Source: Eubacteriales bacterium (GTDB taxonomy: Bacteria > Bacillota > Clostridia > Oscillospirales > CAG-272). Taken from it: a stretch of 64,000 nt of DNA. The notes beneath the pieces are model-generated. The model had not been told where the DNA came from and did no database searches. It saw only the letters and a list, made by a program, of their open reading frames with translations. The DNA is taken from the NCBI GenBank assembly GCA_045542275.1, contig JAZQKP010000035.1:44746-108745 (forward strand), read 5' to 3'. Made by a program: the position numbers and the translations under genes. Shown piece by piece: positions 35,417 to 36,716 of the stretch; the first letter of the stretch is position 1, and every line of letters starts with the position of its first letter.

Positions 35417-36499
35417 ATGATTAAAAACACCTTGCCTGAAACTAATCTTCGCACAAGCGATTTCTATTACGATTTACCTGAGGAGCTTATCGCCCAGACT
35501 CCTATGGAGCCCCGTGACCACTCCCGTCTTCTTGTCCTTGAGAATGGGGAGATTACCCATAAGCACTTCTACGATATAATCGACTATCTTAAGGAGGGCG
35601 ACACCCTTGTAATAAACGATTCCAAGGTTATCCCTGCACGAATTTACGGTGAAAAAATCCGTCCACAGGGTGAGGAGTTTGTACATGAGGCATCAAAAAT
35701 CGAAACTCTGCTTTTAAAGCAGCTTGAGTCCGACAAGTGGGAGGTGCTGCTCCGTCCTGCCAAAAAGGTAAAGGTTGGTGGCACTATCCGTTACGGCGAT
35801 ATTCTTACTGCCACAGTTGATGACGTTGTGGAGGACGGAAACCGCATAGTTTCCTTTTCCTATGACAAGACAAAATATAAAAACATTTATGAGGTCTTAA
35901 ATATTATCGGCTCTATGCCCTTGCCCCCCTACATTACAAAAAAGCTGGAGGATAAGGACAGATATCAGACTGTGTACGCAAGAGAAAACGGCTCCGCTGC
36001 CGCACCTACGGCAGGACTTCATTTTACAAAGGAGCTTATGGCTAAAATCGAAGCAAAGGGTGTTAAAATCGTACCTGTAATGCTCCACGTAGGCCTTGGC
36101 ACCTTCCGTCCCGTAAAGGCAGACAAGATTACTGACCACATTATGCACTCCGAGTTTATAACCGTTACGGAGGAGAGCGCAAGAATTATAAATGAGCGCA
36201 AGGCAAAGGGTGGCAGAATTATTGCAGTGGGCACCACCTCCTGTCGCACTCTTGAAAGCGCTACGGACGAAAACGGCATTGTTCAGCCTATTGCTACAAA
36301 CACAGGCATCTTTATTTATCCCGGTTATAAGTTTAAGGCAATAGACGCATTGATTACCAACTTTCACTTGCCCGAAAGCACACTTTTAATGCTTGTTTCT
36401 GCCCTTGCAGGCAAGGAAAATATAATGAATGCCTATAAGGTTGCAGTTGAAGAAAAATATCGCTTCTTCTCCTTTGGAGATGCAATGCTCATTCAATGA
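35417..36499 (+). CDS. queA: S-adenosylmethionine:tRNA ribosyltransferase-isomerase
   Basis: ...[28 protein letters not shown]...[10 protein letters not shown]. Confidence 0.9.
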
Positions 36500-36716
36500 G
36501 CATGCAATGAATTGCCCGATGGGCATGAATTGGCTGCGCCATGAATTGCACCTATGGTGCATGAATTGCCTTCGGCATTGAGAACAGGGCAATTCAAATC
36601 ATGGAGAGCAAAGCACGAGAAATCATGAAACGTAGTTTCAATTCATGACGGCTTGCCGTCAATTCATTAAAATCATATATCCCGTATACATCAAAGACGC
36701 AATGCTCATTCAATAA
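36479..36716. repeat. array D (CATGAATTG x4 / CAATTCAT(G) inverted) bounded by a 21-bp direct repeat of the queA 3' end
   Basis: GATGCAATGCTCATTCAATGA (36479..36499) versus GACGCAATGCTCATTCAATAA (36696..36716), 19/21. Words at 36505, 36524, 36540, 36560; inverted words at 36590, 36639, 36660. Mini-hairpins GCCC-GAT-GGGC, GCACC-TAT-GGTGC, GCC-TTC-GGC, GACGGC-TT-GCCGTC. Confidence 0.85.

Follow-up and report, generated by a model that had tools for sequence, protein, structure and literature searches.

Several integrative elements restore the 3' end of the gene into which they insert; these, together with their non-autonomous derivatives, include the elements at tRNA/tmRNA- or guaA-type attachment (att) sites, the CIMEs of Streptococcus, and satellite-like arrays such as the tycheposon islands. 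Structured intergenic repeats form another group, to which REP/BIME, REPIN, BOX, RUP, ERIC, and Correia belong. The Gut-1 motif was described only as found in human gut sequences, and its seed sequences carry GUGAUAU words followed downstream by AUAUCAC inverse words and hairpins (PMC2864571). The locus considered here is an array of short words and GC-rich mini-hairpins, the flagship array, which stands at the end of the queA gene of a Eubacteriales bacterium (assembly GCA_045542275.1). The window, i.e. the whole stretch of DNA analysed, has 64,000 nucleotides (contig JAZQKP010000035.1, positions 44,746 to 108,745). The reading favoured, with a probability of roughly 0.72, is that positions 36498-36694 are a horizontally mobile, non-coding cassette of ~200 bp with a Gut-1-class body, which entered by one reciprocal crossover in the tail of queA.

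An earlier note, made from the letters of this DNA, had reported that the end of queA (six codons and the stop) is repeated 217 bp downstream with two changes, one in an Asp codon and one in the stop, and both observations hold. GATGCAATGCTCATTCAATGA at 36479-36499 comprises the last six queA codons and TGA, and GACGCAATGCTCATTCAATAA lies at 36696-36716, offset by 217 nt from the left copy. The two agree at 19 of 21 positions, a pair of which the like was found in none of 100 shuffles, and the mismatches are GAT against GAC and TGA against TAA. The features of the locus are as follows.

35417-36499, + strand: queA coding sequence, 360 aa (open reading frame and translation; QueA homologues with PF02547).
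36479-36499, + strand: left 21-mer, attL-like, GAT...TGA, the active gene end (the empty site of the same-species relative L171 reads GAT...TAA).
36482-36505, core 36485-36503, + strand: tail/anti-tail hairpin ATGCTCAT-TCA-ATGAGCAT (sequence, fold, and consensus fold).
36507-36576, + strand: forward half, four times ATGAATTG, each followed by a perfect GC mini-hairpin; the Gut-1-like part.
36577-36589, + strand: apex spacer ATTGAGAACAGGG, 13 nt, between the forward and reverse halves.
36590-36667, + strand: reverse half, CAATTCAA, CAATTCAT, and CAATTCAT alternating with AAATCATG and hairpins.
36668-36695, + strand: right arm, 28 nt, with the motif TATATCCCGTATACATC at 36676-36692.
36696-36716, + strand: right 21-mer, attR-like, GAC...TAA, which runs on into the flank found directly after queA in L171.
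36717-36764, + strand: resident queA-GH31 spacer, unchanged in the empty site of L171.
36765-39092, + strand: GH31 glycoside hydrolase gene (Pfam).

Related contigs are designated here by L numbers. Several of them were recovered through their ATP synthase c subunit, which is identical to that of the window, and L171 was reached by a search for QueA homologues. The earlier note had taken the duplicated gene end as a mark of insertion and had predicted relatives with a single 21-mer. Such empty sites are present. L171 belongs to the same species (QueA 99% identical, 97% nucleotide identity on both flanks) and holds one 21-mer ending in TAA, followed by the spacer of the window and GH31; this single 21-mer aligns to both window copies, the window having 197 nt more in the alignment. 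Five further relatives (L161, L162, L163, L166, and L169), which are 81-85% identical and show the order dapA-queA-GH31-atp, likewise have an empty site, with a gap of only 10-13 nt between queA and GH31. Direct target repeats with a one-copy empty site, as expected of an att-type element, are found both here (L171) and in L047, which is filled, against its nearest relative L042, which is empty. By comparison of these sequences it is proven that the flagship array was inserted and that the repeat at its borders re-creates the gene end.

The markers within the repeats tell how the junctions may have arisen. The resident site reads GAT…TAA in L171, the left copy of the window GAT…TGA, and the right copy GAC…TAA; a single crossover of the chromosome with a GAC…TGA-bearing circle would yield this reciprocal pattern. 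The left 21-mer thus reads as a hybrid of a resident left edge and a cassette right edge, and the right 21-mer as the displaced resident end of queA. The last seven queA codons are now partly supplied by the cassette. The gene end has been replaced as in an att-type element, and the QueA with the insert is still of 360 aa, with the C-terminus DAMLIQ; an exact protein look-up of this QueA gave no match. The cassette-borne tail is DCMLIQ in L047, L175, and L188, and every cassette of the flagship family ends TGA and then GCAT. L047 matches L042 base for base to …TTCGGCGAT (GGCGAT) and then goes over into the cassette tail TGCATGCTCATTCAATGA and the array, downstream of which the L042-type tail and flank resume. 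Because L047 switches to TGCATGCTCATTCAATGA after L042-like sequence, the left repeat copy was brought by the cassette and is not a target duplication. The anti-tail ATGAGCATGC is the reverse complement of the queA tail, and the hairpin that the two form is extended by GC/GC across one bulged A, with the queA stop codon in its 3' arm. Among other cassettes the anti-tail covaries with seven different tail variants and matches each perfectly.

Such cassettes have moved between distant hosts. Cassettes of the flagship family stand at the queA tail in L001, L047, L174, L175, and L188, and an interrupted one in L185/L186. The cassette bodies of L047 and L175 are 99% identical with queA at 64%, and those of the window and L188 are 90% identical with queA at 80%. 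Arrays with the flagship word ATGAATTG also occupy three intercistronic gaps in the terminase-portal region of the IMG/VR contig L198, and a homologue of the flagship's right half is found in the viral contig L217. The cassette had no match in plasmids, a scan of IMG/VR with the right-arm motif gave chance matches only, and a QueA scan of metagenome contigs found almost no close relatives, L083 alone being close and itself cut.

Some further details of these contigs may be recorded. At 3030-3050 of L198, CCCGTACACATCG, the core of the right-arm motif, adjoins a word/hairpin array; it is the reverse complement of the last codons of the terminase large subunit (…YDVYG*). The right arm at queA, too, reads PDVYGI-stop as its reverse complement. 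A conserved hairpin module GCGTGTT(A/G)TCCTTAACGGAGAACACGC flanks arrays in unrelated contigs (L010 at 2640-2660, L185 at 6020-6045 and 6330-6360, L217 at 935-965).

The queA tail receives other cassettes as well. Displaced tails that match 15-21 of 21 positions are found downstream of queA in L002, L004, L007, L019, L022, L025, L038, L044 (three copies), L047, L052, L076, and L086. A threshold of 14/21 proved too loose, with 22 hits against 18 in controls; reliance is placed mainly on hits of at least 16/21 and on L047 at 15/21, which is backed by the empty site of L042, and all were inspected by eye. The flanking repeats of L019 agree perfectly over 66 nt; those of L025 measure ~45 nt, and those of the window and L076 21 nt. 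L022 carries two stacked elements, and the tail is filled in L036 and empty in L035. Putative toxin-antitoxin cassettes, recognised by eye, lie between tail copies in L019 (5008-5950) and L076 (1833-2600; also in L089). The same-species L164/L165, which from 36673 on agree with the window at 98.7% identity, carry, against the same displaced tail, a prophage-like block of small unannotated genes together with another small hairpin element. Homologues of the first open reading frame (ORF) of this block sit among RecT, SSB, YopX, HNH, and methylase genes; the ORFs of the block had no PHROG hits, no match in the phage database, and no relative in IMG/VR. Immediately left of the displaced tail, unrelated cassettes and the L164/L165 block have the motif (T)CTTATATCCCGTAYACATC in common. 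Rfam gave no match for the other cassette types at this site. QueA proteins at least 88% identical to one another end in eight different tails (ILP, LIQ, LIR, LIL, LIV, LIE, FIS, and DCMLIQ). On this record, within this clade of Clostridia from ruminant and human guts, the queA tail acts as an attachment site.

Several observations accompany this site. At 5030-5620 of L044, four tandem 183-bp units follow queA, each structured and ending in CTTATATCCCGTAAGTATCGGA and a copy of the queA tail. The L019 and L076 cassettes, as read by eye, resemble a DinJ/RelB-like antitoxin with a YafQ/RelE-like toxin and have their own promoters. In the QueA proteins P0027, P0047, P0057, and P0059 divergence over the last 40-90 residues far exceeds that of the remainder, which suggests imported recombination tracts ending at the tail.

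The body of the cassette belongs to a described family, although the earlier note had not recognised one. Its grammar is that of Rfam Gut-1 (RF01706; Weinberg 2010, PMC2864571), for which the gathering score is 50 bits. Array E of the window, between atpG and atpD, passes this score with 53.7 bits (+ strand); array F scores 47.4 (- strand), array A 28.5 (- strand), and the left half of the flagship 26.5 (+ strand; 36505-36572, E = 0.004 in a 401-nt search), which is below gathering. At least three tandem hairpins with a repeated linker and covarying stems, as in Gut-1, are nevertheless present in the flagship, which has four words and four hairpins. The two share tandem short GC hairpins split by a conserved A/U-rich word (GUGAAAU or GUGAUAU), a source in gut Clostridia-type metagenomes, and a position downstream of genes. 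They differ in the flagship linker, AUGAAUUG rather than GUGAWAU, and in extent, the Rfam model spanning only three hairpins of one half. Gut-1 is filed as a small RNA (sRNA; Rfam type 'Gene; sRNA'), and mobility, the whole palindrome, phages, and gene-end replacement are undescribed there (PMC2864571); no later papers citing RF01706 were found in the literature searched. The flagship is a Gut-1 variant, and what is new is its mobility, the architecture of the whole element, its presence in phages, and the gene-tail cassette site.

In its anatomy the flagship is regular, with small departures. The word ATGAATTG occurs exactly on the + strand at 36507, 36525, 36541, and 36561, and its complement exactly at 36639-36646 and 36660-36667; six of the nine copies in the window fall inside 161 nt, about four being expected per window. 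The earlier note had counted a 9-mer four times in forward orientation; the four word copies stand, but the 9-mer CATGAATTG occurs only three times, the first forward copy reading AATGAATTG instead. Each forward word does bear, as had been claimed, a GC stem-loop with a 3-nt loop: GCCC-GAT-GGGC, GGC-TGC-GCC, GCACC-TAT-GGTGC, and GCC-TTC-GGC, all perfect and each closed by an extra T-A pair. Of the three inverse words with hairpins that were claimed, two are exact, whereas the first, CAATTCAA, matches at only 7 of 8 positions. In the right half, CAATTCAT takes turns with a second word, AAATCAT(G), and the right hairpins are GAAAC-GTA-GTTTC (36627-36639) and GACGGC-TT-GCCGTC (36647-36660). An ORF of 24 codons through the forward words (36507-36581, MNCPMG…, MNCPMGMNWLRHELHLWCMNCLRH) was discarded, as it is not conserved and stops after 8 codons in L047.

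That left and right words can pair, as the earlier note had proposed, is borne out by a consensus fold of five homologous copies, in which three word:inverse-word helices are nested and the mini-hairpins stand as branches. The words are invariant across these copies; the mini-hairpins show compensatory changes or replacement of whole units, compensatory changes being carried by both right hairpins, and two flagship subfamilies have only one of four forward hairpins in common. Single-sequence folding gave modest z-scores (-2.6 on the + strand and -3.7 on the - strand). Perfect hairpins number 114 in 23 arrays against 44 in shuffles, with 72 loops of 3 nt versus 33 of 4 nt. G.U pairs are almost absent (~1% of cells in the flagship copies and 0% in array E), and a strand test by G.T versus A.C mismatches was uninformative, nearly all stems being perfect. 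The perfect stems, the 3-nt loops, and the matching anti-tails agree at least as well with a templated origin, or with folded DNA being under constraint, as with an RNA role. A scan of the + strand of the insert found no terminator or promoter consensus, and arrays are also located within the atp operon and phage late operons; hence the arrays would have to be transcribed through. Read-through as part of a queA-GH31 mRNA, and with it co-transcription of GH31, is probable.

The events at queA may be pictured as follows. The forward words and mini-hairpins would zip with the inverse words and their hairpins into a branched rod. The cassette would pass through a circular intermediate, for which the circle/empty junction would read …ATCAAAGACGCAATGCTCATTCAATGAGCATGC… and the circle …CCCGTATACATCAAAGACGCAATGCTCATTCAATGAGCATGCAATGAATTG…, and one reciprocal crossover within the last ~20 nt of queA would let it into the chromosome. 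It supplies a near-identical tail, a TGA stop, and an anti-tail pairing with the new tail, and the resident tail with its TAA now lies 217 nt downstream. The recombinase would act in trans and would most likely be an integrase of the resident prophage type, which is favoured because unrelated cassettes share the conserved arm motif; the preference for a trans-acting integrase over plain homologous recombination is only modest. The array may fold as a single-stranded nucleic acid for recombination, or it may instead act as a 3'-exonuclease barrier in the polycistronic mRNA, as REP/BIME do. The structural role that we infer, whether recombination-competent fold or REP-like mRNA barrier, is the least secure part of the account.

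A number of observations weigh against this account, and several of them favour entry of the same cassette with no dedicated enzyme, i.e. by RecA-type or microhomology-driven recombination of a circle (formed from two tail copies) or of a queA-anchored linear fragment, which is a possible explanation if not a probable one. No recombinase adjoins queA in ~25 contigs with Pfam calls, and there is none among the 19 window ORFs tested. The only one seen is a large serine recombinase in the distant phage relative L190, and serine recombinases of this type do not need long blocks of identity. The repeats vary in length from 21 nt (window, L076) over ~45 nt (L025) to 66 perfect nt (L019). The crossover fell within GCAATGCTCATTCAAT inside the window 21-mer but at its left edge (left of TGC) in L047, L175, and L188, and with such differing crossover points general or microhomology-driven recombination is a better fit than an integrase acting at a fixed position; later conversion may lie behind these differences. 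The mosaic C-terminal regions of P0027, P0047, P0057, and P0059 show recombination tracts in queA and speak for the enzyme-free reading. Moreover, the near-identical bodies of L047 and L175 carry different right arms, so that the right arm is not strictly linked to the body. The circular junction was not found, and the string of tail and anti-tail is absent from IMG/VR. The scarcity of G.U pairs and the dominance of 3-nt loops do not favour an RNA-only role. Against recombination without a dedicated enzyme, on the other hand, stands the short identity of only 8-16 nt in cross-lineage events (15/21 between the L047 copies), which is below the usual requirement of RecA. The L047 junction lies exactly at the tail with no donor tract within queA, the conserved arm motif beside the core is common to unrelated cassettes, and a prophage-like block uses the same site.

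The entry of a discrete cassette at the tail has also to be weighed against origins of other kinds. An unlikely one is a scar, left where a prophage or island at the queA tail lost nearly everything between attL and attR except ~200 bp. The right-arm motif does recur at the end of the L164/L165 block, with ORF homologues among RecT, SSB, YopX, and HNH genes, but at least five genomes of different lineages have this body within identical boundaries (99% identity between L047 and L175), and independent deletions are not expected to give an identical product repeatedly; self-contained palindromic bodies of Gut-1 type also occur without att context (arrays E, F, A, and B; L198 and L217). It is very unlikely that a transposase-driven miniature inverted-repeat transposable element (MITE), or a REP/BIME mobilised by RAYT, made the 21-mer as a target-site duplication. 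The small size and palindromic overall shape, the many copies per genome, all of them intergenic, and the position of array F inside a terminator loop would suit such an element. However, the repeat (21-66 nt) is not the fixed short target-derived duplication of a MITE, its left copy being borne by the element and unlike the resident copy in L047, L175, and L188; the palindromes differ in every unit, unlike the conserved palindromes of REP; and neither a transposase, whether of the Y1 type or other, nor a RAYT is found among the window ORFs tested. Evolution in place as a 3'-untranslated or intercistronic RNA, through local duplication of the queA end and then slippage building the array, retains hardly any probability and is already contradicted for the flagship. 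Whole units are indeed gained and lost between subfamilies, and arrays E and B have come down vertically and show compensatory change, but both this species and its relatives have empty sites, near-identical bodies stand in hosts with queA only 64% identical, and L047 is filled where L042 is empty.

Other identities were rejected. An integron cassette with attC is excluded by the lack of R''/R' cores, the boundaries being GATGCAATG… and …ATCAAAGAC and the upstream neighbour dapA. For a diversity-generating retroelement the repeat is only 21 nt, the differences are T/C and G/A, and there is no reverse transcriptase among the neighbours. CRISPR or TIGR guide arrays do not agree with a constant part of 8 nt and variable parts that are perfect palindromes of 9-15 nt, and the sole match to a CRISPR direct repeat, at 19 bits, is due to chance. 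The GUGAUG words fail as kink-turn or box C/D motifs, as the GA positions fit neither k-turn strand. Promoter, terminator, DnaA-box, parS, DUS-type, and iteron readings were likewise set aside, the words differing between arrays and the arrays lying inside essential operons.

An extension of the cassette account, drawn by analogy and itself doubtful, would make the word/hairpin arrays the folding module of an unrecognised cassette system, in which circles folded as single-stranded DNA, the tail:anti-tail duplex, and a recombinase in trans would together rebuild the gene end. The tail:anti-tail hairpin would present a duplex copy of the last codons of the gene, as happens in CTX-phage for dif and in attC for integrons, and the branched rod would be a structure-specific rather than a sequence-specific signal. 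If true, it would explain the wobble-poor perfect hairpins, the 3-nt loops, and the anti-tails that covary with seven tails, and also why a prophage has its site in common with toxin-antitoxin cassettes and hairpin elements.

The flagship is not the sole array of the window. A strict detector (a 6-mer at least three times, spacing 13-34, hairpin stem of at least 4) found four arrays (16495, 34293, 36507, and 45650) against ~0.15 in shuffles. Array F and the partial array at 57700-57790 were recognised by eye and Rfam and not by this detector. Six further loci of the same grammar had been listed; A, B, E, F, and a partial G were found again, but array 'C' could not be identified.

16495-16680, no strand assigned: array A, GTGATG(T)/ACATCAC words and GC hairpins; adjoins a tRNA gene (its Gut-1 match is on the - strand).
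34245-34372, no strand assigned: array B, CGATAT/ATATCGA words; opens with a 12-bp hairpin holding the mgtC stop codon.
45606-45712, + strand: array E, in the atpG-atpD gap; 3-4 hairpin-bearing GTGATAT words and a stop-codon hairpin (53.7 bits in Rfam).
49019-49205, - strand: array F, GTGATATT three times and AATATCAC twice.
57700-57790, - strand: partial array G, ATGAATTG twice; downstream of a rubrerythrin gene.

The words were said to be specific to each locus. They do differ between arrays, but ATGAATTG recurs at 57709-57775 and in phage contigs, and E and F share GTGATAT; the words are in fact alike (GTGAAAT, GTGATAT, GTGATGT, CGATAT, and ATGAATT), all resembling RTGAWWT. Array E is kept in genomes ~81% identical, with four doubly changed (compensatory) pairs and 98% of cells paired, which no shuffle equalled. 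Array B is kept, with compensatory changes, in L161-163 and L188; L001, L175, and L183 lack it. The GTGATG words of array A are also found in L174, at a different locus. Array F lies within a ~310-nt block in a terminator loop, and the same-species L168 has a plain intact terminator and no array F. The halves of this bidirectional terminator, AAAAACAGCC … GGCTGTTTTTT, are split by the ~310 nt in the window (49203-49234, compared with 11330-11360 of L168). Within the block, array F is accompanied by a second terminator and by the GC hairpin GGCGCAC…GTGCGCC, which is also seen just upstream of the array in Gut-1 seed sequences.

Other repeats of the window are recorded for completeness. A 43-nt direct repeat at 12425-12467 and 12633-12675 (98% identical, spacing 208) starts right after the stop of the GDPD gene (12676-13503, - strand). 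The 165-nt segment inside the repeat has a terminator of its own as well as an ACGTAC…GTACG hairpin and resembles the 'type ii' elements that follow queA in other genomes. As a second gene-end duplication it was rejected, being a tandem partial copy of another repeat family after the stop. A repeat of ~90 nt (…ACACTCCGTCGG…CCGACGGAGTGCTTTTTGGAGATTTTTTGTGAACAAGATTTATCTGAGCTTTGGAAACTCTAT…) occupies two intergenic regions 3.8 kb apart, at 53760-53850 and 57555-57645. Between 60239 and 60651 there are four to five parS-like palindromes TGTTTCACGTGAAACA and the DnaA-box-like 9-mers TTGTCCACA and TTTTCCACG; a ParB-fold gene lies at 59422-60243, and the genes at 60736-61512 and 61528-62442, after the parS-like gap, fit soj/spo0J by length only. 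The window probably adjoins the replication origin.

These results bear on Gut-1 and on QueA alike. Gut-1 has been in Rfam since 2010 without a function, and it is here re-described as one arm of a larger palindromic element, which exists in several word variants in gut Clostridia and their phages and of which at least some copies are mobile. For annotation, the arrays cause assembly breaks and spurious tail variants, and an sRNA gene should not be called by default. Cassette traffic at the queA tail explains the differing QueA C-termini among near-identical strains, and the tail offers a compact, testable system for the harmless insertion of non-autonomous DNA into coding ends.

Compared with the REP/BIME-type repeats, the arrays are likewise short, palindromic, multi-copy, intergenic, tolerated in operons, and plausible as protectors of mRNA 3' ends; with BOX they share modularity and a variable number of units. 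In REP, however, the relation is the opposite of that in the flagship, where conservation falls on the single-stranded word and the palindromes are hypervariable, and the flagship lacks the GTAG tetranucleotide, with no RAYT among the ORFs tested. Integron cassettes resemble the queA cassettes as small units (toxin-antitoxin or ORF-less) stacked at one site, and attC is a recombination site in the form of an imperfect hairpin in which structure outweighs sequence. Similarly, in CTX-phage a hairpin mimics the double-stranded dif target, as the queA tail:anti-tail duplex might. These likenesses raise, purely by analogy, the idea of single-strand recombination at the queA tail. The flagship differs from integrons in its boundaries without R''/R' (RYYYAAC/GTTRRRY), in the lack of an IntI gene and of attI, and in a site within the coding tail. 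The integrative elements of gene 3' ends differ in that the queA unit is only ~200 bp, non-coding, and built of a hairpin array, with a crossover point and repeat length that vary and an integrase not found near queA. With them the queA cassettes nevertheless share gene-end direct repeats flanking the insert, a gene kept intact by the tail that the element supplies, tandem accretion that stacks the tails, integrase-less elements between att copies, and empty sites in relatives.

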